Positions 1 through 8,256 of a DNA stretch of 8,256 bases are shown here, one piece after another. The position numbers and the translations under genes are program-made. Each line of letters opens with the position of its first letter. Position 1 is the first letter of the stretch. The notes beneath the pieces were generated by a model that saw only the letters and a list, made by a program, of their open reading frames with translations, made no database searches and was not told where the DNA came from. The DNA comes from a virus (taxonomy: Duplodnaviria > Heunggongvirae > Uroviricota > Caudoviricetes), in the IMG/VR virus record IMGVR_UViG_2531839239_000027. One strand, written 5' to 3'.

Positions 1-1242
1 ATGGCGAGAAAAACACCCCCATTAACCACAGTACAGATCAAAGCAGCCAGACCAGCAGAAAAGGAATACACCCTACAGGACGGCGGAGGGCTTTTTCTCC
101 TGATCAAACCGTCCGGATCAAAACTCTGGAGATTTTCCTACTACCGACCATCGGACAAAAAAAGAATATTGCTGAGTTTTGGATCGCTTGATGATGTTTC
201 CCTGGCTGATGCCAGAAAACGCCGTAGCGAGTACAGGGCGTTAATTCGTGCCGGAACTGACCCGCAGGACCACGAGAGGCAAAAAAGAGAGACAGAGGCC
301 CGAAGACAAGGGAACACGTTCGAAAATGTGGCAACAGCATGGTACCAGGTGAAAATCAGCCAGAATCTGGCCCCCAATACGATTAAAGACATCTGGCGAT
401 CGCTGGAAAAATATGTATTCCCGTTCATCGGCAACACGCCAATAGACACCCTGACCGCTCGCAGGTTTGTTGAGGTGCTTACCCCCATCAAGGAACGTGG
501 CAACCTGGAAACGCTCAAGCGAGTTTTACAGCGTGTAAATGAGGTAATGGATTACGCCGCCAATAGTGGGATGATTGATGCCAATCCGGCTATGAATGTG
601 CGTAAGGCGTTCCCCTCCCCTGTAAAAAAACATATGCCAACAATCCGCCCCGAACAGCTGCCGGAGCTTATGCAGGCTTTATCAGTATCGGCAACAGAAC
701 GGCAGACCAGATTACTGATTGAATGGCAGTTACTGACCGTAACCCGTCCCGTTGAAGCATCGTCGGCACGCTGGGAAGAAATCGACATGGAGGCGCAACG
801 CTGGACCATACCCGCCGGACGCATGAAGATGCGCCGCGACCACGTTATCCCGCTTTGTGACCAGGCTATGGCAGTGCTGGAGGCTATGAAACCAATCAGC
901 CACCACCGCGATTATGTTTTCCCAAGTCTGAAAGACCCACGGCAGCCGATGAACAGCCAGACAGCAAACGCAGCATTACGACGCATGGGGTTCGCTGGCG
1001 TGCTGGTGTCTCATGGATTACGCGCCATATTCAGCACAGCAGCGAACGAGGAAGGATTCGAGCCGGACGTAATCGAGGCGGCACTTGCCCACGTCGACAC
1101 CAACGAAGTCAGACGGGCATACAACCGGAGCAACTACATAGAAAAACGCGTGGTGCTTATGCGCTGGTGGGGCGAATTTGTCGAGGCTGCGGCGACGGGC
1201 GTAACCCTCGCCAGTGGTAAAAGGGGTATCCGAGCCGTTTAG
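1..1242 (+). CDS. int: P4-type tyrosine integrase / site-specific recombinase
   Basis: 413-aa ORF starting at window position 1. N-terminus (LQDGGGLFLLIKPSGSKLWRFSYY...SLADARKRR) fits the arm-binding domain pattern of P4-family integrases. C-terminus has H-x-x-R (HGLRAIF) and the LAHV...RAYNRSNY tyrosine box of tyrosine recombinases. Its promoter and any att site lie outside the window. Confidence 0.9.
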   Translation: MARKTPPLTTVQIKAARPAEKEYTLQDGGGLFLLIKPSGSKLWRFSYYRPSDKKRILLSFGSLDDVSLADARKRRSEYRALIRAGTDPQDHERQKRETEARRQGNTFENVATAWYQVKISQNLAPNTIKDIWRSLEKYVFPFIGNTPIDTLTARRFVEVLTPIKERGNLETLKRVLQRVNEVMDYAANSGMIDANPAMNVRKAFPSPVKKHMPTIRPEQLPELMQALSVSATERQTRLLIEWQLLTVTRPVEASSARWEEIDMEAQRWTIPAGRMKMRRDHVIPLCDQAMAVLEAMKPISHHRDYVFPSLKDPRQPMNSQTANAALRRMGFAGVLVSHGLRAIFSTAANEEGFEPDVIEAALAHVDTNEVRRAYNRSNYIEKRVVLMRWWGEFVEAAATGVTLASGKRGIRAV

Positions 1243-1284
1243 CTGTACAGAAAACCAGTAAAAACTACGAAAACCATTTAAAAC

Positions 1285-1314
1285 CGTCGTATAATTGCAT
1301 CACATTTAACGACG
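1285..1314 (+). promoter_or_regulatory. Candidate sigma70 promoter: perfect -10 TATAAT (1290-1295), weak -35, flanked by inverted repeat CGTCGT(1285-1290)/ACGACG(1309-1314)
   Basis: TATAAT hexamer read directly; no good TTGACA-like -35 at 17 bp. The 6-bp inverted repeat brackets the -10 and predicted start site, so it could be an operator. Not verified. Confidence 0.35.
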
Positions 1315-1340
1315 AGGCCTTGAAAAATGAAACCGTTAAG

Positions 1341-1571
1341 ATGCAAACAAATTTCAGATGCAATTGCGACGGGCTGCAACTGGCCCTGATGGTTCAGCAT
1401 GAATTTTGGTCAACCTACGATCCGGAGGACAGAACGACGGCCCCATCAAAAAAACAGGTAGTAGATTTCCTGGTATCCCGTGGAGCTTCCAGAAATCTGG
1501 CTGTAAGTATTGATAAGGTTGTACGTCCGGCATCCATGAAGACCGGAGGCAGGCCCAAAAAATGGCGGTAA
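1341..1571 (+). CDS. Hypothetical small protein with a possible HTH-like segment; may instead be a non-coding transcript
   Basis: ORF-track frame 1320..1571 (TTG at 1320, first ATG at 1341). Neither start has a convincing Shine-Dalgarno; the GAGG at 1314-1317 is best placed for an out-of-frame 19-codon ORF at 1327. The unit is bounded by the TATAAT promoter and a strong terminator. Segment GASRNLAVSIDKVVR is HTH-like by eye only. Confidence 0.3.
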   Translation: MQTNFRCNCDGLQLALMVQHEFWSTYDPEDRTTAPSKKQVVDFLVSRGASRNLAVSIDKVVRPASMKTGGRPKKWR

Positions 1572-1581
1572 CAATCCTGAA

Positions 1582-1606
1582 AGCGGCAGAAATGCCGCTT
1601 TTTTTA
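1582..1606 (+). terminator. Rho-independent terminator
   Basis: Stem AGCGGCA (1582-1588), loop GAAA, stem TGCCGCT (1593-1599), followed by a T-run to 1605. Confidence 0.7.
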
Positions 1607-1634
1607 TAAATCCCTTTCAAATCATCAATATAAA

Positions 1635-1720
1635 AAACGGTGTATACCGTTTAAAAACGGTGAGTACTGTTTTTCCCTGCATCCGATGATTTACCGTATT
1701 TCTCACCGGAATACACCGGA
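1635..1720 (+). promoter_or_regulatory. Candidate operator cluster upstream of alpA: two tandem palindromes plus direct repeats
   Basis: AAACGGT-N4-ACCGTTT at 1635-1652 (perfect 7-bp arms) and AAACGGT-N4-ACTGTTT at 1655-1672 (6/7), centres 20 bp apart. Direct repeats CACCGGA at 1704-1710 and 1714-1720. Shine-Dalgarno GAGG at 1725-1728 for the 1739 ATG. No clean -35/-10 pair identified. Confidence 0.4.
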
Positions 1721-1738
1721 TTAATGAGGTAAATCACG

Positions 1739-1945
1739 ATGGAAGCAATCAAAAAAGTCATCTTTCGCCAGGAAGTAAAAAAACTTATCCATATTAAGGC
1801 AGACAGCACGCTGCAAAGCATGATCAACGCCGGAGAATTCCCGCAGGGTTTTCGTGTCGGTTTGCGCCGTCGCGGATGGTATGAGGAAGACGTAATCGCA
1901 TGGATGAAAGAACGCGAACAAGAAGCGCGCGGAACGACCGCTTAA
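1739..1945 (+). CDS. alpA: AlpA-family phage regulatory protein (excisionase/activator-like DNA-binding protein)
   Basis: 68-aa ORF; motif ...SMINAGEFPQGFRVGLRRRGWYEEDVIAWMKERE matches the AlpA-family pattern (FP.G.r.G.r..gW.e.dv..W). GAGG 10 nt upstream of the ATG. Position just after int is typical of P4-like and PICI elements. Confidence 0.85.
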   Translation: MEAIKKVIFRQEVKKLIHIKADSTLQSMINAGEFPQGFRVGLRRRGWYEEDVIAWMKEREQEARGTTA

Positions 1946-1970
1946 CATATATAGGGCAAATGATGAACAT

Positions 1971-1998
1971 AAAAAAAGCGGCCCCGAAATGGAGCCAC
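1971..1998 (-). terminator. Rho-independent terminator for minus-strand transcription
   Basis: Read on the minus strand: GUGGCUCC-AUUUC-GGGGCCGC (8-bp stem including two G-U pairs, 5-nt loop) followed by U7 (plus-strand A-run 1971-1977). Would stop transcripts from the RHH gene before they run antisense into alpA. Confidence 0.55.
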
Positions 1999-2066
1999 CT
2001 TTCTGAACAATTAACCCGCTGCGCCGTATGTGTCAACAATCATAAGCCTGGGCATGATAACCGCGA

Positions 2067-2270
2067 TCAGGCTGGTGGGCAATTATCTTGCTTGTTGGGG
2101 CCGTATTGTGCTGCCATTTTCATCCGTTCAGAACGTGAATATTTTTTTAGAAACTCATCAAGGACAAAAGCGCATGGTGCGAATCTTTCTGATTCATGCT
2201 CGAGCGCCATATTTTCGTGCTCTCTGTTCGTTTTTTGCGATGGTGTATTGGTTGATTCTTTATTGGTCAT
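2067..2270 (-). CDS. Hypothetical small protein (67 aa; alternative internal ATG at 2210 gives 47 aa); doubtful
   Basis: Only minus-strand ORF between the RHH gene stop (2328) and the minus-strand terminator (1971-1998), so it lies inside that transcript. Weak Shine-Dalgarno, lower-GC region, no recognisable motifs. Could be non-coding. Confidence 0.25.
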   Translation of the reverse strand: MTNKESTNTPSQKTNREHENMALEHESERFAPCAFVLDEFLKKYSRSERMKMAAQYGPNKQDNCPPA

Positions 2271-2327
2271 TGTGTGTACCTGTAAAGCAATGCGCCGTAG
2301 TACCTCACACCACGGCGCTGATAGTGA

Positions 2328-2633
2328 TTATTCTGATTCTTTGGCCTTGCGGCGCTGGAGTTCTTCACGTGCGACAGTGACGAGCTGCCCGATCTCCTCG
2401 GCGGCTTTGATTCCGAGTTTTTCCACCTGCGCCAGTGCATTGAGCGAAGAAATCAGGAGGTTTTCTCCGCTTCCTTCTGCCTGGCGGCGGGCGATTTCAC
2501 CGCGCATGGCGGTTACTATGAATCCGGCGTTGCTTTCACCGTCCAGTTTTACGGATTCCATGCCTTCAATAACATCATGCGGGATCCGAGCTGTCAGTGA
2601 TTGTGATTTTGCGTTTTTTGAACCTGTAGCCAT
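2328..2633 (-). CDS. Ribbon-helix-helix (Arc/CopG/MetJ-like) DNA-binding protein with C-terminal helical extension; putative repressor
   Basis: ORF-track frame 2328..2648 begins at TTG; the ATG at 2633-2631 with GAGAGG Shine-Dalgarno is the likelier start (101 aa). N-terminus KSQSLTARIPHDVIEGMESVKLDGESNAGFIVTAMRGEIARR has the beta-strand/helix/helix layout of RHH regulators. Divergent from the Icd-like-to-rep operon across an operator-rich region. Confidence 0.6.
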   Translation of the reverse strand: MATGSKNAKSQSLTARIPHDVIEGMESVKLDGESNAGFIVTAMRGEIARRQAEGSGENLLISSLNALAQVEKLGIKAAEEIGQLVTVAREELQRRKAKESE

Positions 2634-2654
2634 CTGTAATCCTCTCAATGAAAG

Positions 2655-2749
2655 TGTAAGACAATATACACATAAAAAGTCTTACATAAAAGCATTGACA
2701 TGTAAGCCACCTATAAATAAAGTTACTTACACCTTGTTAATGCAAGGTG
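2655..2749. promoter_or_regulatory. Divergent promoter/operator region: two TGTAAG...CTTACA palindromes, a sigma70-like promoter and a leader inverted repeat
   Basis: IR1 TGTAAGAC-N16-GTCTTACA (2655-2686). -35 TTGACA (2695-2700), 17-bp spacer, -10 TAAAGT (2718-2723), pointing rightward. IR2 TGTAAG-N19-CTTACA (2701-2731) overlaps the spacer and -10. IR3 CACCTTG-N6-CAAGGTG (2730-2749) sits at the predicted start site. A TATATT hexamer on the minus strand within IR1 could be the -10 for the RHH gene. Confidence 0.55.
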
Positions 2750-2829
2750 CAGAAACGACGAAACCCCGCACTGTAGGAGCAGTAACGGGGCTTCTAACCA
2801 CCAACGATAACGAGAGTATCGAGGTAGCT

Positions 2830-3030
2830 ATGAGAAATCATACCACACACCCGCAAGGGCGGGACTCGCACAACCTGAATAAATACATTTGGCGTTTTAT
2901 CGCCCTGAGCACTGCACAACCGCGCGTGATTACCATTGAGGCCACCAGCGAACAGGAAGCACGCCTGCAATCCCCGGCTGGCTGCGTGATGGTATTCGCT
3001 GCCCGTATTCGTCAGGGGGTAGGCTTATGA
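2830..3030 (+). CDS. Small protein resembling host cell-division inhibitor Icd-like proteins of P1/P4-type prophages
   Basis: 66 codons, the C-terminal part of the spurious long ORF 1900..3030. GAGG at 2821-2824, 5 nt before the ATG. Motif YIWRFIALS...TSEQEARLQ...VMVFAARIRQG matches my recollection of the Icd-like pattern (rF.f.a....A..E.aR...lAR.fvL.FAGR); from memory, not searched. Stop overlaps the next start (ATGA at 3027-3030). Confidence 0.45.
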   Translation: MRNHTTHPQGRDSHNLNKYIWRFIALSTAQPRVITIEATSEQEARLQSPAGCVMVFAARIRQGVGL

Positions 3031-3689
3031 GCCAGGAAATCACACTACAACAGGCAGCAGAACGCGCCCACCAAATCGAAGTTATTTGCGCACTGGCAGA
3101 GGATTACCCAAGCATGATGACCGACAGAGAATCAGGGGCAATCATCAGCTTACTTAAACGCCTTAGCGGTGAGGTCTGCGTATTCCTGATCGATGAACAG
3201 GAAAGAAGAACGCTTATTTCTAACGAAAAAAATGCGGAGGGGTACATGTGCAATAAAACCACACCGGACGCAGCCGCCGCGCTCACTACGCTGATGCACG
3301 CACTTATTGATATTGAATGCACGGCAGAGCTTGCGCAGGGAGAAGAACAGAAAGACCGGACACAGTTCGCCCTGGAATGTATCCGATACATCGCAACGCG
3401 GTCGCTGAATGACGCTAAAAATATTCTTGTTGCTGATTGTGAAAATGGGGGGGTTATGCGTGATGATCGTTTTAATTCCCTGAAACAAGAATTTTCCGGC
3501 GTTCCTGATGATGCGGCTGATGCGCTTTCGTCAATGCCAGAACTTATTAGAGCGGCTTTTTTCTTACTTTCCACGAGAGAATATAAATCAACGGGACTTG
3601 ATGTACTGAATATCGCCGCCGATTATGCGGAATATGTGGCAGAGGCGCGTTACAGAAGAAAATTTCCTGAGGATGTAAGCCATGCGTGA
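3027..3689 (+). CDS. Hypothetical protein (220 aa, acidic, predicted helical); function unknown
   Basis: Start overlaps the Icd-like stop; 8-nt overlap with the next ORF (ATGCGTGA at 3682-3689). G-rich Shine-Dalgarno-like stretch upstream. No catalytic or nucleotide-binding motif recognised. Confidence 0.6.
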   Translation: MSQEITLQQAAERAHQIEVICALAEDYPSMMTDRESGAIISLLKRLSGEVCVFLIDEQERRTLISNEKNAEGYMCNKTTPDAAAALTTLMHALIDIECTAELAQGEEQKDRTQFALECIRYIATRSLNDAKNILVADCENGGVMRDDRFNSLKQEFSGVPDDAADALSSMPELIRAAFFLLSTREYKSTGLDVLNIAADYAEYVAEARYRRKFPEDVSHA

Positions 3690-3915
3690 TATTTATCTTG
3701 AAACAATAGACCGCGCATCACTTGCACTTTCTCACAGTGAAAACATGATGGAAATATTGCGGATGTGCCTTGAATCCTTTGGCGATAATGAACGTAATGC
3801 AAAAAAAACGCGGATTATTACATCATTAATAACGCTTCTTGAGTCTGTAATAAATGAGTTGCAGGAAATAGAGACATTGCACGACAGATATAACGAACAG
3901 CACACCGGAGAATAA
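3682..3915 (+). CDS. Hypothetical protein (77 aa)
   Basis: GAGGA at 3668-3672 upstream of the ATG; start overlaps the upstream gene. No recognisable motif. Confidence 0.5.
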   Translation: MRDIYLETIDRASLALSHSENMMEILRMCLESFGDNERNAKKTRIITSLITLLESVINELQEIETLHDRYNEQHTGE

Positions 3916-3920
3916 AAATA

Positions 3921-4220
3921 ATGAAACTTAAATATTCTGGCTTAACTGCCAGTGGCAACACTCACCCTAAATTTACGCGCGGTGATATTTACCGCGACCA
4001 GTACGGCGGCACGGTAATGATTAAGGGCGTGGCGGGACGGTGCGTAACTTACCGCCGTGAAGGTTACGAATATGATTGCGTGATGCCTGTTTATCAGTTC
4101 CGGCGTGATTTTTCTCTGGTACAGACCGCGCCGCATAACGTGCCCACCAGCAACGCCAGGGCACGGGCAAACATCCAGAAGCTGAAAACCATGATTAACG
4201 GATTCAGGGGCAAGAAATGA
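3921..4220 (+). CDS. Hypothetical protein (99 aa, basic, Gly/Tyr/Arg-rich)
   Basis: GGAG at 3906-3909; stop overlaps the rep start (ATGA at 4217-4220). No recognisable motif. Confidence 0.5.
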   Translation: MKLKYSGLTASGNTHPKFTRGDIYRDQYGGTVMIKGVAGRCVTYRREGYEYDCVMPVYQFRRDFSLVQTAPHNVPTSNARARANIQKLKTMINGFRGKK

Positions 4221-5617
4221 AAAGCGCACCGAACTTAAAAAAACAGCCTTACGACAAGATGACCGAAGTCATCATTTTTGCGGGTAGTGATGCGTGGGCA
4301 CATGCGAAACAGTGGCAGGAACAGGACGGGCGACTGGCTGGCGATAATGTGCCTCCCGTTGTGCTGGCTGATGATCAACTGGATGAACTGGCAGACCTGA
4401 GAATCATCGACGAGGGGCGCTATTGTGTCCGGCTGTACAAGGCAGGCCACATCAGGCCATCAAATATTAATGCCATTGCGCACAAGCTGGCGGCGGCGGG
4501 TGTAACTGATGCGAATTATTACCCCGAAGGGATGCACAGCCAGAAGCGGGAGAACTGGCGCGAATATCTGGAACGGGAGCGGGGGAAAAAGCCAGGGGAA
4601 GAAAAACACCACCAGCGAAAAACCACGCTACCAATGAGCGTGGGATCTGCCGGATACGACACACAACTTGATTACGTGGTTAAGGGGATTATTCCGGCGG
4701 TATCGCTGTGCAGCATATACGGGGCGAGCGGTTCATATAAATCGTTCCTTGCGGGTTCGTGGGCGTGTCACGTTTCCACGGGCCGCCAGTGGGGAGGCCG
4801 CAGGGTGGCGCATGGCGCTGTTCTCTATGTGGTTGGTGAAGGCGGTATCGGCGTTCCGCGTCGTGTAAAAGCCTGGGAGGTTGTGCACGGTGAGCAGGTG
4901 AAAAATCTGTATCTGGTAAACCGTCCCATCTTTCCGGCTGCCCCGCTTGATGTTGAGGAAATGGTTATCGCTGCCCGTCAGGTGGAACGGGAAACGGGTA
5001 AACCGGTTCGAATGATTATTCTGGATACGCTGGCGCGCTGCTTTGGCGGCAATGATGAAAATGATTCCCGTGATATGGGGGCGTTTATCCGTGGGTGTGA
5101 CGAACTGAAACGGCGCACAGGGGCAACGGTGCTGGTGGTTCACCATTCCGGCAAGGATGAAACAAAGGGGGCGCGTGGTTCCAGTGCATTTCGTGCATCA
5201 CTGGACGCCGAATACCGGATACGCAGGGAGGACGCAGGCAGCGAAGCGCTGGTTATCTCATGTACCAAAATGAAGGACGCGGAGGAACTCAAAGAAGCAG
5301 CATATGACTTACGCGTGGTGGAGCTTTTTACCGACGCTGACGGGGAGTTAATCACGTCGCTGGTGGTGGTGGATAAGCCGCGCCCTCCCGTTGAACTGGA
5401 GCGCATCGAGGAGGCAGGGAACAAGACGGAGAATCACGCCGCGCTATGGCAGTGCATCAGAACACGAACAGCACACGGGGAGGCGTGCACTATCGCCCTT
5501 CTCCGCGACGATATGAAAAAGCTGGGGTATGAGATGAAGCACTTCCGGCGCTGGCTGTACAAGCTGGAAAATGATGGCGTAATCGTTATTGACGGTGATG
5601 ACGTGCGCCCGCTGTAA
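4217..5617 (+). CDS. rep: Replication protein: RepA/DnaB-like RecA-fold ATPase (AAA_25-type helicase) with an N-terminal domain of unknown function
   Basis: 466 aa. P-loop region YGASGSYKS, Walker B-like MIILDTLARCF, and LVVHHSGKDETKGARGSSAF matching the RepA-family sensor pattern (vhH.gK....RGssa). Followed immediately by an iteron array. AGGGG Shine-Dalgarno at 4204-4209. Confidence 0.8.
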   Translation: MKSAPNLKKQPYDKMTEVIIFAGSDAWAHAKQWQEQDGRLAGDNVPPVVLADDQLDELADLRIIDEGRYCVRLYKAGHIRPSNINAIAHKLAAAGVTDANYYPEGMHSQKRENWREYLERERGKKPGEEKHHQRKTTLPMSVGSAGYDTQLDYVVKGIIPAVSLCSIYGASGSYKSFLAGSWACHVSTGRQWGGRRVAHGAVLYVVGEGGIGVPRRVKAWEVVHGEQVKNLYLVNRPIFPAAPLDVEEMVIAARQVERETGKPVRMIILDTLARCFGGNDENDSRDMGAFIRGCDELKRRTGATVLVVHHSGKDETKGARGSSAFRASLDAEYRIRREDAGSEALVISCTKMKDAEELKEAAYDLRVVELFTDADGELITSLVVVDKPRPPVELERIEEAGNKTENHAALWQCIRTRTAHGEACTIALLRDDMKKLGYEMKHFRRWLYKLENDGVIVIDGDDVRPL

Positions 5618-5819
5618 AAAGTGGGGAGTAAAAGTGGGGGGAGTGGGGAATTTAACAAAATTGAAACATAATTACCCACTTTCCCACCTGTATATACCCA
5701 AAAAAGTGGGGAGTAAAAAACATATTGAAAAACATAACGTTAGAATCACAAAAAAAAGAGGTGGGGAGACGGTGGGTAATTTCAAAAAGTGGGGAGCAAA
5801 AGTGGGGAGTAGTGGGGAA
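5618..5819. repeat. Iteron array flanking an AT-rich core; putative origin of replication
   Basis: At least 9 direct copies of GTGGGGAG/GTGGGGAA/GTGGGTA at approximately 5621, 5634, 5643, 5706, 5761, 5772, 5789, 5802 and 5812. Inverted copies at 5674-5689 (ACCCACTTTCCCACC). A-rich core 5651-5756 with repeated ATTGAAA(AA)CATAA at about 5659 and 5724. Confidence 0.7.
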
Positions 5820-6064
5820 TGAACAGAAAAACCAGAGATAAGACAGCGCCAAAATATAAAGCGTTAGACATGACAGAGCTTTCCTTAAAGGTGGCAATCA
5901 GAACGATAGACCGCCACGCGGGGGAAGGATACGCGAAGGAGCATCCCGAACTGATAAGCGCATTCATGACCACAGCGGCGGCAAACTTTGCCACGCTGAC
6001 AGAACGGGAGATTGCCGAAGCGGAACAGGTAACAACCATCAACGTTAAAAGCGCTGGAGAATAA
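5819..6064 (+). CDS. Hypothetical protein (81 aa; alternative start at ATG 5870 gives 64 aa)
   Basis: ORF begins inside the last iteron and ends 19 nt before a strong terminator. GGGGAG 9 nt upstream of the 5819 ATG. No recognised motif. Confidence 0.4.
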   Translation: MNRKTRDKTAPKYKALDMTELSLKVAIRTIDRHAGEGYAKEHPELISAFMTTAAANFATLTEREIAEAEQVTTINVKSAGE

Positions 6065-6082
6065 CCGAAGAAGTGAGCACAT

Positions 6083-6107
6083 AGCCGGAGCAATCCGGCT
6101 TTTTTTC
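6083..6107 (+). terminator. Rho-independent terminator
   Basis: Stem AGCCGGA (6083-6089), loop GCAA, stem TCCGGCT (6094-6100), then T-run 6100-6106. Confidence 0.7.
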
Positions 6108-6194
6108 GATCTCATATATCTTCAAAGATGGTTAATTAATGATAATCTATCGAAAATACTGGTTATGCAATGATAAGTATCAGGAGAAAACAAA

Positions 6195-6389
6195 GTGGAA
6201 GAGATAAAGCAAAGCGCTACCGTGATGATTGATCATGAAATCCTTAACGAGCTTAAAAAGTTGCAGTTCGATATTGTGCGCCGGATGAATGAATCAGGTA
6301 TCTACGGCAGGGCGGCAACACCAACAATAGGGCATCTTGCGCGCGTACTGTTACGCGAACGCCTGGGCATTGCAACAAGTGAGGCGTAA
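6195..6389 (+). CDS. Hypothetical small protein (64 aa, GTG start), possibly a small DNA-binding protein
   Basis: Strong Shine-Dalgarno AGGAG (6182-6186) 8 nt before the GTG. First gene after the terminator and an AT-rich promoter-like region (6110-6180; GATAAT at 6141-6146). N-terminal beta-strand then helices (ATVMIDHEILNELKKL...) suggests an RHH-like fold; speculative. Confidence 0.45.
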   Translation: MEEIKQSATVMIDHEILNELKKLQFDIVRRMNESGIYGRAATPTIGHLARVLLRERLGIATSEA

Positions 6390-6392
6390 ACA

Positions 6393-6554
6393 ATGGCTAT
6401 CACAGAACGCGAGGCAAGCATCATTAAAGCCATTGGCGAGGAAACAAGAGACACCATAGCGCCATTGATGGAAAAGATCGCAGAGCTTGAGACACGAATA
6501 AACAAGCTGAGTGATGAAGTTGAAGGCCTGATCTCGTTACTCGGTGAGCAATGA
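6393..6554 (+). CDS. Hypothetical small helical protein (53 aa); not in the supplied ORF track
   Basis: Hand translation: MAITEREASIIKAIGEETRDTIAPLMEKIAELETRINKLSDEVEGLISLLGEQ. GAGG at 6381-6384, 8 nt before the ATG, which is 3 nt after the upstream stop. Heptad-like pattern. Confidence 0.4.
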   Translation: MAITEREASIIKAIGEETRDTIAPLMEKIAELETRINKLSDEVEGLISLLGEQ

Positions 6555-6640
6555 CAGGGGGGGAGTGTTCCGGCCGGAAAGTCGATCGCCCTGGACACCG
6601 CCCCCAGTCTCATTCATAGAAAATTTTGCTTTTCAAAAAA

Positions 6641-6660
6641 GTTACACGAAAAGTTACACC
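6641..6660 (+). repeat. Two direct GTTACAC(C) repeats 12 bp apart, immediately upstream of terS
   Basis: GTTACAC at 6641-6647 and GTTACACC at 6653-6660, each preceded by an A-run. Same motif and 12-bp spacing as the array inside terS. Confidence 0.5.
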
Positions 6661-6681
6661 CCCTCAAAACGAGGTTTTTGC

Positions 6682-7170
6682 ATGGCATTAACGACCAAAA
6701 AAAAGCGGTTTGCTGATGCGTTATCAAAGGGCACAAATCCAACGGAAGCCGCGATACATGCGGGATACAGCGAAAAGACTGCAAGGGTTAAAGGCTGGCA
6801 GCTATCCAATGATCCGGAGGTGAAAAAGTATCTTAAGGCTGTAACTTCTGATGTAACTTTTCAGGTTACAAAACCGAAAAAAGTTACAAAGAAAGTTACC
6901 GAAAAAGTTACACCGGAACGGGCATCAATTAACACCATTGAGATGATGGATAACGGCCTACCCGACCCCATCAAAGCAATGGGCAGGATACTGATTGACA
7001 ACATGGACACAGATCCAAAACTGGCTTTAGATGCCGCGTTTAAGCTGGCCCAGTTCACCCACCGCAAGATCGGCAGCATTGGGAAAAAAGAGGTTAAAAA
7101 ACTCAATGCCGCTAATGTCTCCTCAAATCGGTTCCCCATCCCTAAGCCACCAACTGGCTTAAAACACTGA
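6682..7170 (+). CDS. terS: Phage terminase small subunit (Terminase_2/P27-like N-terminal HTH)
   Basis: N-terminus MALTTKKKRFADALSKGTNPTEAAIHAGYSEKTARVKGWQLSNDPEVKKYL matches the TerS pattern (KQ.lF...Y...GNaT.AAi.AGYS.KTA...G..Ll.n..V..yi). ORF-track frame opens at 6544, but the ATG at 6682 with GAGG at 6671-6674 is the likely start. 162 aa from that start. Confidence 0.75.
   Translation: MALTTKKKRFADALSKGTNPTEAAIHAGYSEKTARVKGWQLSNDPEVKKYLKAVTSDVTFQVTKPKKVTKKVTEKVTPERASINTIEMMDNGLPDPIKAMGRILIDNMDTDPKLALDAAFKLAQFTHRKIGSIGKKEVKKLNAANVSSNRFPIPKPPTGLKH
6841..6914 (+). repeat. 12-bp-periodic array of GTTAC/GTAAC pentamers inside terS
   Basis: GTAAC at 6841 and 6853; GTTACA at 6865; GTTACA at 6883; GTTACC at 6895; GTTACACC at 6907. 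Spacings of 12 bp except one 18-bp gap. Encodes the low-complexity stretch VTSDVTFQVTKPKKVTKKVTEKVT. Confidence 0.55.
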
Positions 7171-7181
7171 GGTAGCGAACT

Positions 7182-7343
7182 ATGAGCGAATACATCACAG
7201 ACCCTATTGATGTACTCACGGAAATCATGAACGACAAGCAGCAGCCAACCGAAATACGGTTACAGGCTGCCGCTGTTCTGATGCCATATTTTCACGAAAC
7301 CCTAACCCCATGTTACCAGGAGGAAGAAGATAATGATTTCTAA
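7182..7343 (+). CDS. Hypothetical small protein (53 aa); not in the supplied ORF track
   Basis: Hand translation: MSEYITDPIDVLTEIMNDKQQPTEIRLQAAAVLMPYFHETLTPCYQEEEDNDF. GAGG at 7169-7172; begins 11 nt after the terS stop and overlaps the next start by 11 nt. Confidence 0.4.
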   Translation: MSEYITDPIDVLTEIMNDKQQPTEIRLQAAAVLMPYFHETLTPCYQEEEDNDF

Positions 7344-8256
7344 AAACATGAAAGGCGTGTCGGCAGTTCGCGCCGCCAGCGTGCTTACATCGTGTAAATT
7401 CAGCCATGCAGACGCAATTGAAATGACGAAAAAAAATGATCCGGCAGTATCGAAATTTCTTGAAAAATCCATTGTTGCCGGAATGACTACGGATAATATG
7501 CCGTCGCTGGTGGCAGAGCCGATAGTAAGAGAGCTTGGCGAGTATATTTTTTCGCAGTCTGTACCAGGCAAGCTAATCAGCAGCGCGCTGAATCTTCCGT
7601 TTGGCGCAAAATTGCAGTCAATATCAGGCAAGGGTAGTAAATGGCTTAAAGAAGCCGAAGAAATCCCTGTCAAAGAGGGAGAAGTAAACGAAAGTGCGCT
7701 AAAACTGTGCAAACTTGGCGCTATTGTGATGCTGAATAACGAGCTAATCAAATTTAGCACCCCTGGTACCAATTCAGCGATCAGAGACTTGATCACATCG
7801 GAATCGGTGAAAGAAATAGATAAAAAATTTCTTTCCAGTGACCAGGAGGTGGCGGGCGTATCCCCTGAGGGCGTGCTTAATGGTGCTGATGAGGCCGAAA
7901 ACTTCATAGAGCTTTTCAAAAAGCACATAGCGAACGGTAACACGCTTGCCACGTCGTCGCTAATCTTGCCCGTAGAAAACGCCTTACAGCTTACTGATGC
8001 TGAGTTCTGGCAGATAGAGCTTTTGAGAATACCGGTAATTGTGAGCGAACAGGCGGATCGCATGATGCTGATAGACGCTCAAAAGCTGATTATTAACGTT
8101 GAAGCCACGGTTATAACCCCAACTGATGAGGCGGTAATAAAAACCGAATCAGGGACGGTTAGCCTTTTCCAGAATGACGCTACAGCGTTCAGGGCAATCA
8201 CCTATTGCGGATGGCAAAAACTCGATAAGGCCGTCACCGTTCTGGCGAAAAGCTGA
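7333..8256 (+). CDS. HK97-fold phage major capsid protein-like (no N-terminal scaffold/delta domain)
   Basis: 307 aa, complete (stop at 8254-8256). GGAGG at 7318-7322. Segments SPEGVLNGADEAENF and ATSSLILPVENALQLTDAEF line up by eye with the HK97 gp5 segments EGQLLNGDGTGDNLEGL and ASGIVLNPRDWHNIALLKD. Alignment is from memory and unverified. Confidence 0.6.
   Translation: MISKNMKGVSAVRAASVLTSCKFSHADAIEMTKKNDPAVSKFLEKSIVAGMTTDNMPSLVAEPIVRELGEYIFSQSVPGKLISSALNLPFGAKLQSISGKGSKWLKEAEEIPVKEGEVNESALKLCKLGAIVMLNNELIKFSTPGTNSAIRDLITSESVKEIDKKFLSSDQEVAGVSPEGVLNGADEAENFIELFKKHIANGNTLATSSLILPVENALQLTDAEFWQIELLRIPVIVSEQADRMMLIDAQKLIINVEATVITPTDEAVIKTESGTVSLFQNDATAFRAITYCGWQKLDKAVTVLAKS

Follow-up and report, generated by a model that had tools for sequence, protein, structure and literature searches.

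Short repeats that are recognised by the small terminase TerS, and that lie inside or next to the terS gene, are well known from cosB of phage lambda, from the pac site of SPP1, and from P22 and P1. The redirection of packaging by satellites is also known, from the TerS-S protein of the pathogenicity islands of Staphylococcus aureus (SaPIs) and from the Rpp/cosB swap of the island EcCICFT073. HK97 is the archetype of cohesive-end (cos) packaging assisted by an HNH endonuclease, and its TerS site is located at +15 to +29 from the cut (PMC11331095). Phage-inducible chromosomal islands (PICIs) of Gram-negative bacteria, some of which carry terS and most of which carry a capsid homologue, have a layout that matches that of the DNA described here (PMC6092414; bioRxiv 10.1101/2022.07.18.500453). 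This DNA, the IMG/VR record IMGVR_UViG_2531839239_000027 (8,256 nucleotides, in the following called the window), is an 8.3-kb PICI-type satellite of Escherichia coli O26:H11 with 100% identity to strain 11368 (NC_013361.1), and the subject of this text is a 9-mer, AAAGTTACA, that is repeated upstream of and within its terS gene. The repeats are probably the lineage-specific recognition half of an HNH-dependent cos site with 3' cohesive ends, equivalent to cosB of lambda. This is suggested by the motif itself, its clustering, its conservation at the DNA level, its co-variation with the TerS lineage, and the homology of the adjacent core to a mapped cos end.

The repeat motif and the codons of the TerS linker

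The first-pass annotation had described GTTAC and GTAAC pentamers in both orientations, and a direct count gives the same positions and spacings. GTTAC is found on the plus strand at 6641, 6653, 6865, 6883, 6895 and 6907, and GTAAC at 6841 and 6853, with a spacing of 12 bp upstream of terS and of 12, 12, 18, 12 and 12 bp inside the gene. The repeat unit is however longer than the pentamer, namely the 9-mer AAAGTTACA, and every unit includes an A3-6 tract, with a regular 12-bp phasing. Upstream of the gene the 11-mer AAAAGTTACAC is exact at 6637-6647 and 6649-6659, and it recurs in the gene at 6902/6904-6914. The upstream pair had thus been correctly described as two copies 12 bp apart, with coordinates (6641-6660) that are a few bases off. 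The 9-mers of this pair start at +30 and +42 from the predicted cut, and the pair lies 22-45 bp ahead of the terS start codon, adjoining the Shine-Dalgarno sequence. Both GTAAC copies read TGTAACTT(C/T) and are true reverse complements of the 9-mer. The two orientations therefore hold at the 9-mer level, indicating that GTAAC and GTTAC are not merely a choice of Val (GTA/GTT) and Thr (ACN) codons. GTTAC occurs 25 times in the window against 10.8 expected, a number reached by none of 200 shuffles, and AAAGTTACA with at most one mismatch occurs 9 times against 1.85 expected, again with 0 of 200 shuffles reaching nine; seven of these nine matches are located within 275 bp (6638-6912).

TerS consists of an N-terminal helix-turn-helix (HTH) domain (aa 1-56), a linker predicted to be disordered (aa 57-84) and C-terminal helices (aa 96-146). 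Residues 3-57 correspond to Pfam Terminase_2, and this N-terminal domain can be aligned to the one that binds DNA in the SF6 small terminase, whose structure is solved. The AlphaFold2 model of the protein is of medium quality (predicted local distance difference test score, pLDDT, 68.7; 14 sequences) and was used for domain boundaries only, the HTH being confident and the linker having a pLDDT below 50. The in-gene array codes for AVTSDVTFQVTKPKKVTKKVTEKVTPE (aa 53-79), so that the Val-Thr-rich linker is dual-coded as had been proposed, and the codon choice in it is frozen. In a codon alignment of the relatives the four-fold degenerate Val and Thr codons of the motif have a mean pairwise codon identity of 0.81, compared to an average of 0.40 in the 37 other four-fold columns (Mann-Whitney p=3e-4), and third positions outside the array show 0.21-0.45 identity to the window, close to saturation. 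GTA ACT in the inverted copies is invariant in all relatives that have Val-Thr there, and GTT is invariant at the Val codons of the direct copies. Such frozen synonymous sites indicate that the in-gene copies are under selection as DNA, and together with the conserved upstream copies they uphold the earlier view of a DNA-level signal tied to the small-terminase gene. A repeat at the protein level only, in which a (VTxx)n linker is prone to slippage and the copies before the gene are a coincidence or a relic, would agree with the Val-Thr at every fourth residue and with the gain and loss of units in close variants, but it is hardly credible since the synonymous sites are frozen, the non-coding upstream copies are conserved across genera, the inverted copies match the full 9-mer, and other lineages use different reading frames.

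Two other roles for the region were considered and rejected. The segment 6609-6925 does not fold better than expected as RNA (z = -1.27; an equally good fold was obtained for 9 of 100 shuffles), the predicted hairpin being merely the inverted copies pairing with the direct ones, and Rfam gave only a sub-threshold microRNA match. The repeats are also not replication iterons, as those of the origin (AAAAAGTGGGGAGT) have a different motif and lie beside repA.

The predicted cut and the relatives of the locus

Positions 6557-6635 of the window are about 80% identical to a non-coding stretch of many phages converting to Shiga toxin (Stx) types Stx1a, Stx2c and Stx2a, in which it lies between the HNH endonuclease gene and terS, and this core is found upstream of terS in all relatives. 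One of the Stx-type phages, Lys8385Vzw, was identified by PhageTerm analysis of virion sequencing as a cos phage with 3' cohesive ends, with the cos sequence CGCCCCCCCT at the genome end (PMC7946995). Its deposited record ends with ...GGACACCGCCCCCCCT and starts with CTCACGCAGAG / CTCACGCAGAGAAAAAATTCC, and this mapped end falls at the same spot as 6599-6608 of the window core. By homology, the packaged left end of the island is predicted to start at 6609, the bases after CGCCCCCAGT being CTCATTCATAGAAAATT. To the right of the cut, all lineages have 16-19 of 26 flanking positions in common, whatever their repeat motif. The first repeat begins +30 to +34 right of the predicted cut in every lineage examined; among the further lineages from the scans, the own motif begins at +30 to +42. 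The position of the repeats is thus fixed relative to the cos cut, while the start codon is found 24 to 229 bp from it. From the G-run to the cut, the left half of the core agrees with E. coli Stx-type phages at 41-44 of 52-54 positions and less well with elements having the TerS type of the island, namely 28/52 in L085, 36/54 in L087 and 39/54 in L082. With this left half closer to the Stx-type phages than to elements of its own TerS type, the island is a mosaic, with a cut-site half like that of local phages and a recognition half from another lineage. Depending on the island copy, 7 to 12 G make up the run at 6557-6563, and GGGGGGAGTG of the iteron region turns up again at 6558, within the core.

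The repeats had been put forward as a candidate pac site at 6631-6914. For this reading, in which TerS binds the repeats and TerL makes an imprecise first cut nearby, with packaging by headfuls and terminal redundancy as in P22, SPP1 and P1, speaks that the TerS DNA-binding domain belongs to the Terminase_2 / SF6-SPP1 family and that the pac site of SPP1 also has direct repeats, spanning promoters and the start of terS (PMC4737164). However, the relatives are embedded in HNH-terS-terL modules, PhageTerm assigned a phage that has the homologous core to the cos type, with a defined 10-nt 3' end (PMC7946995), and every lineage has retained both this core and its spacing from the first repeat, so that headful packaging is very unlikely. 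A role in packaging recognition is consequently the part of the proposal that is best supported, and the headful label is the part given up. The predicted cut lies just outside the interval, and the repeats are in the position of cosB, from +30.

The TerS homologues with 52-65% identity are found in E. coli, Salmonella, Hafnia and unassigned assemblies, and the repeat architecture is shared by all eight distinct loci, in which TerS is 55-65% identical to that of the island. Every one of the eight has at least one direct AAAAGTTACAC about 30-42 bp ahead of the start codon (five or more in L082, which is a partial module, HNH-terS). Around +156/+168 there are none to two inverted copies, and the stretch from +152 to +224 contains one to three direct ones, two or three in 7/8. 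The loci include a complete Hafnia alvei prophage with terS between an HNH gene and the terL, capsid and portal genes, and the motif is therefore not specific to satellites. The phage collection contained no phage with a TerS of the AAAGTTACA type, and only the Stx lineage (41-47% identical) was present there. Against the TerS of Stx2c phage 1717 the island protein shows 46% identity, where the HTH and C-terminal domains can be aligned and the linker cannot.

An operator for late-gene control, the alternative offered by the first-pass annotation, has to be considered with these relatives in mind. The upstream pair, and perhaps also the copies in the gene, would then bind a regulator of the terS-capsid operon, either TerS itself in autoregulation or a factor of the satellite or helper. 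The location of the upstream pair shortly before the start codon and beside the Shine-Dalgarno sequence would suit such a regulator, and a dual role alongside packaging is compatible with the data. No sigma-70-like promoter was found in 5500-7400, however, and in the Hafnia and Stx prophages the equivalent repeats are located between HNH and terS, within the late operon, with the motif of the window at the corresponding site in the complete Hafnia prophage. Moreover, their position follows the cos cut and not the start codon, and the frozen in-gene copies would be left unexplained. We therefore regard an operator as quite unlikely.

Two observations on single relatives can be added. A related island of E. 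coli, L095, has the order int, alpA, ..., HigB/HTH, terS, type I restriction-modification genes, with two cos cores, one at 2792 after alpA and the other at 8211 before terS, each followed by AAAAGTTACAC, which recalls cos1 and cos2 of EcCICFT073. The contigs L087 (1532-1993) and L088 (1228-1689) encode an identical TerS (P0011) with an identical upstream region; downstream of it one contig has protease-capsid, portal and connector genes, and the other a 51-aa open reading frame (ORF) and a 309-aa capsid-like gene. The occurrence of one TerS in a phage-like or capsid-forming context and in a satellite-like one suggests a recent exchange of a terS cassette.

Lineage motifs and the proposed packaging of the island

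For comparison between lineages, a set was formed from a core-pattern scan of viral contigs together with Citrobacter and Entomohabitans loci from a contig scan by TerS alignment. The latter scan of genome contigs gave mostly matches limited to the N-terminal domain in unrelated phages, the useful loci being L002, L004 and L006. Seven motif groups (A-G) can be distinguished. The core and the A-tract flank are common to all of them, and every group has a GTTA-type motif of its own, the motifs including AAAGTTACA, TGTTAAC, GTAAACA/TGTTTAC, AAGTTAAA and TGTTAA(T/A). Lineage A, the Stx phages, has five upstream copies of (A/C)(A/T)GTTAAC at +34 to +148 from the cut, and in its linker no GTTAAC and one GTAAACA...TGTTTAC pair. 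Lineage B, that of the window, has AAAGTTACA both upstream and in the linker. In lineage C two TGTTAAC overlap the start codon and one is found in the linker at a conserved place (PPVVNST), and lineage D has GTGTAAACATGTTAAC upstream and the inverted pair TGTTTAYACCCCAGCRGTAAACA in the linker. Lineage E carries AAAAGTTAAAG twice upstream, 12 bp apart, with three copies in the linker, lineage F has three copies of AAGTTAAA upstream and three in the linker, and lineage G has TGTTAATGGC(T)TTAACA upstream and GTTAA(A/C) copies in the linker. In six of the seven groups, all but the Stx lineage, the motif of the lineage is accordingly found upstream of terS and again in the DNA that codes for the linker. 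In the terS linker of Stx2c phage 1717 (L090, about 2090-2150) the inverted GTAAACA...TGTTTAC equals the linker motif of lineage D, and the Stx lineage may thus also have in-gene sites, of a variant type.

In a motif-by-segment matrix of 15 loci, anchored on the AGY residues of the HTH domain, the own-lineage motif is absent from the DNA coding for the HTH and occurs just twice in that coding for the C-terminal part, and the motif of another lineage is present only occasionally. A count of 7-mers shared between upstream and linker segments over 103 loci had no discriminating power, as 88 loci had a shared word while about 68 were expected and a control segment gave 72; some start codons had been wrongly assigned, the long spacers of Stx phages raised the numbers, and the anchored matrix was used instead. 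The group-G locus L161 has four linker copies at an exact spacing of 12 bp, coding for VNAAVKPDVKASVKTA. In lineage E the in-gene copies stand in different reading frames and on different strands, giving KLK, TLT and KVK, which indicates that it is the DNA that is conserved and not the peptide.

The only gene that is adjacent to the sites and common to all motif-bearing loci is terS. As its product is the only lineage-specific DNA-binding protein encoded beside the repeats in every locus, we infer that TerS reads them. The cut is predicted at 6608/6609, and Stx-type phages are the presumed helpers. A packaging signal whose bases are not read by the TerS HTH is unlikely, although it deserves consideration. 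The phased A-tract-plus-GTTA units could be recognised by shape, or they could be read by another protein, be it HNH, TerL or a factor of the host. Binding by the SF6 DNA-binding domain is non-specific and a selection of bent DNA has been proposed (PMC4737164), and the A3-6 tract in every unit and the regular 12-bp phasing would fit this. Against this reading, it is the non-A part that differs between TerS lineages (GTTACA, GTTAAC, GTTAAA, GTAAAC) and is kept in both orientations, and the window encodes neither HNH nor TerL and yet has a motif unlike that of the resident phages.

With TerS as the reader of a cosB-like site, packaging could proceed as follows. The island TerS, presumably ring-forming with its HTH at the N-terminus, would bind the AAAGTTACA copies in two clusters that bracket the HTH-coding DNA, the first 30-50 bp right of the cut and the second 230-305 bp right of it, in the linker codons. 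The bound DNA, with about 180 bp between the clusters, would probably be bent or looped. The C-terminal domain of TerS would recruit the TerL and HNH nuclease of the helper, the core would be cut at the predicted 6599-6608, and packaging would run rightwards from 6609, so that the island TerS would steer the motor of the helper onto satellite DNA. The genes for HNH and for the large terminase (terL) are both absent from the window, and the two proteins would have to be borrowed. The C-terminal half of TerS is well conserved with the TerS of Stx phages, as expected if docking onto the helper TerL is needed. A Stx-type HNH-cos-terS-terL module is found in 1255 of 5426 E. coli genomes, with a median of two copies, and is co-resident in the island-bearing strains PV0838 and CFSAN027343, genomes with the satellite having several such modules. 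Apart from the island, the query matches NC_013361.1 at two more places, which are presumably prophage cos cores. The hexamer GTTAAC, the core of the Stx-phage repeat, has 0 copies in the window (1-8256), and resident Stx-type prophages lack AAAGTTACA near cos; the island TerS would for this reason direct the borrowed motor to the island. About two GTTAAC would be expected in the window by chance, and their absence is not significant by itself; it is consistent with an island that avoids the sites of the helper TerS.

Several observations weigh against a cosB-like site read by TerS. Intact inverted in-gene copies are missing from L082 and L094, and the Stx lineage has five upstream copies yet no GTTAAC in the gene. 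Near-identical TerS proteins of E. coli have 4 or 8 aa fewer in the linker, corresponding to 1 or 2 repeat units; since such natural variants exist, not every repeat copy is essential. Lineages that differ in their motif have very similar recognition helices, namely GYSEKTARVKG(W/C/Y)QL in lineage B, GYSAKTARVKGSQL in Stx phages and GYSEKTARSQGSRL in lineage C. The isolated DNA-binding domain of SF6/SPP1 TerS, of the same Pfam family, shows weak pac binding and no preference for the box repeats (PMC4737164), and repeats near terS are thus no proof of reading by the HTH. Phages with the TerS type of the island are known in Hafnia and from one unassigned contig. Finally, position 6606 is A in the O26 window and C in three other E. 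coli island copies and in phages, giving a predicted cohesive end of CGCCCCCAGT in the O26 copy and of CGCCCCCCGT in the other island copies and Stx phages, and this C-to-A change might weaken the O26 copy.

As a tentative generalisation, which we consider possible rather than probable, terS in HNH-cos phages and satellites of Enterobacterales and beyond may be a self-contained specificity cassette, with repeats upstream and in the linker codons that always move and diverge together with it. The O26 PICI would then have grafted one such cassette on a shared cosN, capturing TerL and HNH of Stx prophages, and could interfere with the production of Shiga-toxin phage. In the literature searched there was no PICI in which a cosN resembling that of the helper is joined to a TerS and repeats of the island's own within an HNH-cos system, and no family-wide rule of repeats upstream of terS and in linker codons that co-vary with the TerS lineage; searches for the O26 island or for a satellite of Stx phages gave nothing specific. 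If the cosB-like reading is true, a concrete packaging signal, cut site and set of recognition sites are predicted for a PICI that is present in 220 of the 5426 complete genomes of E. coli, and the satellite would compete for the terminase of Stx-type prophages, a matter of relevance to how stx phages spread and to the yield of toxin phage. DNA recognition by HTH small terminases of the SF6/SPP1 type is still debated, and the co-varying repeats of the seven groups would provide a natural specificity code for them. The array would also clearly exemplify how a disordered linker in a protein can be constrained by a site in the DNA.

The island and its comparison with known systems

The island adjoins tRNA-Pro, between yejM and yejO, and its carriers (at 94-100% identity) are mostly of enterohaemorrhagic backgrounds, e.g. 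O26, O111 and O157. All the features expected of a Gram-negative PICI are found in the window: int, alpA, a replication gene and an iteron origin after it, in a single orientation, a size in the range of about 8-15 kb, the tRNA site, and the optional terS and capsid-like gene (Table 1).

Table 1. Features of the window, in order of position
Feature	Position	Strand	Remark
Integrase (int)	1-1242		
AlpA-like regulator (alpA)	1739-1945		
icd/ash remnants			between alpA and DUF4222 gene in gene order
DUF4222 protein	3921-4220		
RepA-type helicase (repA)	4217-5617		
Iterons AAAAAGTGGGGAGT	5616-5830		
Three small ORFs			between iterons and terS in gene order
Left half of core: G-run 6557-6563, then GATCGCCCTGGACACCGC	6557-6608	+	79-81% identical to Stx-phage HNH-terS spacer
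Predicted 10-nt 3' cohesive end CGCCCCCAGT	6599-6608	+	predicted by homology only
Right flank of cut: CTCA(T/C)..., then AGAAAA(AA)T A-tract	6609-6625	+	conserved
Upstream direct pair, AAAAGTTACAC x2, 12 bp apart	6637-6659	+	cosB-like position
AAAGTTACA copy	6638-6646	+	exact
AAAGTTACA copy	6650-6658	+	exact
Shine-Dalgarno GAGG of terS	6671-6674	+	read from sequence
terS, 162 aa	6682-7170	+	ATG start at 6682
Inverted in-gene pair TGTAACTTC, TGTAACTTT	6840-6860	-	reverse complements of GAAGTTACA, AAAGTTACA
AAAGTTACA copy	6840-6848	-	one mismatch
AAAGTTACA copy	6852-6860	-	exact
Direct in-gene copies	6862-6912	+	one weak, three good
Weak copy CAGGTTACA	6862-6870	+	
AAAGTTACA copy	6880-6888	+	exact
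Copy AAAGTTACC	6892-6900	+	one mismatch
AAAGTTACA copy	6904-6912	+	exact
53-aa ORF	7182-7343		directly after terS
Capsid-like gene, 307 aa	7333-8256		

Upstream of alpA a 20-bp unit, AAAAACGGTGAATACCGTTT, is present twice in tandem at 1633-1672, each unit being internally palindromic, and is a candidate operator for induction control. The region 5616-5830, which immediately follows the RepA-type helicase gene, is probably the replication origin of the island, with three good copies of the iteron at 5616, 5701 and 5784, which have tandem partners, and an inverted pair at 5670-5688 / 5763-5781. A 53-aa ORF at 6393-6554, with a predicted coiled coil, stops (...EVEGLISLLGEQ*) right in front of the cos core, taking the place of the HNH gene of phages, and its conservation extends to L087, L088 and L091; the RefSeq label 'antitermination protein NusG' on one of its homologues looks mis-annotated. 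The product of the ORF that follows terS is 41% identical across 32 aa (pairwise E=2e-9) to the helical core at the C-terminus of the TerS of Citrobacter prophage L004, which belongs to a different lineage from the island TerS, and it had no BLASTP match to the island's own TerS. An ORF of about 50 aa likewise follows terS in L088, L091, L096 and the phage-like L093, and the product could be a stand-alone mimic of the TerS core which, like Ppi or Rpp, interacts with TerS or interferes with it. The capsid-like protein has a weak match to Pfam Phage_capsid and 25% identity to a protease-capsid fusion of a Hafnia phage, in the mature capsid part only (aa 291-625). The protease/scaffold part is missing, and the protein might serve in capsid size redirection or as a decoy.

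As in lambda cos, the predicted cut site is followed by short repeats on the terS side, in the spacer before the small-terminase gene, and like the R3-R2-R1 sites of lambda cosB, which are bound by gpNu1, the repeats presumably anchor TerS for an adjacent cut by TerL (PMC6739421). The locus differs from lambda in having a TerS with a Terminase_2/SF6-like HTH instead of the Nu1 winged helix, a predicted 10-nt 3' end made with the help of HNH, and a second repeat cluster inside the terS coding sequence. The phage relatives have the order HNH, cos, terS, terL of the HK97 type (HK97 gp74/gp1/gp2; staphylococcal phi12 and phiSLT), and a 10-nt 3' overhang (HK97, Lys8385Vzw) and a TerS site just right of the cut are also shared (PMC11331095; PMC7946995). 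In HK97, however, this site is a single one of 15 bp that includes an A-tract, and not a repeat array, and the arrangement with HNH upstream of cos and terS/terL downstream is that of L085, L090 and the 1255 E. coli genomes and not of the window, which lacks HNH and TerL.

The pac region of SPP1/SF6 (pacL, pacC, pacR and box repeats) is served by a TerS whose DNA-binding domain is of the same Pfam family, and the short repeats in or next to terS of headful phages are present in the window. In SPP1/SF6 packaging is headful and the cut falls between the repeat sets, whereas here a cos-type cut is predicted to the left of both clusters; imprecise cuts that leave no cohesive ends are not what the nearest characterised relative (a cos phage), the core and the HNH context point to. 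Among the satellites, EcCICFT073 also has a cosN like that of its helper and a different cosB, with a satellite protein, Rpp, that redirects packaging (PMC6739421). Rpp is a Nu1-like winged helix that heterodimerises with the phage TerS. The island has no Rpp, and its protein is a complete TerS of another family, Terminase_2, with its own C-terminal domain; its presumed helpers are HNH-cos phages and not lambda or phi80. The TerS-S of the SaPIs is similarly a satellite homologue of the helper TerS, presumably acting, as here, on a satellite-specific site together with the helper TerL, with the difference that SaPIs are packaged by the headful (pac) mechanism and a cos mechanism is predicted for the window.

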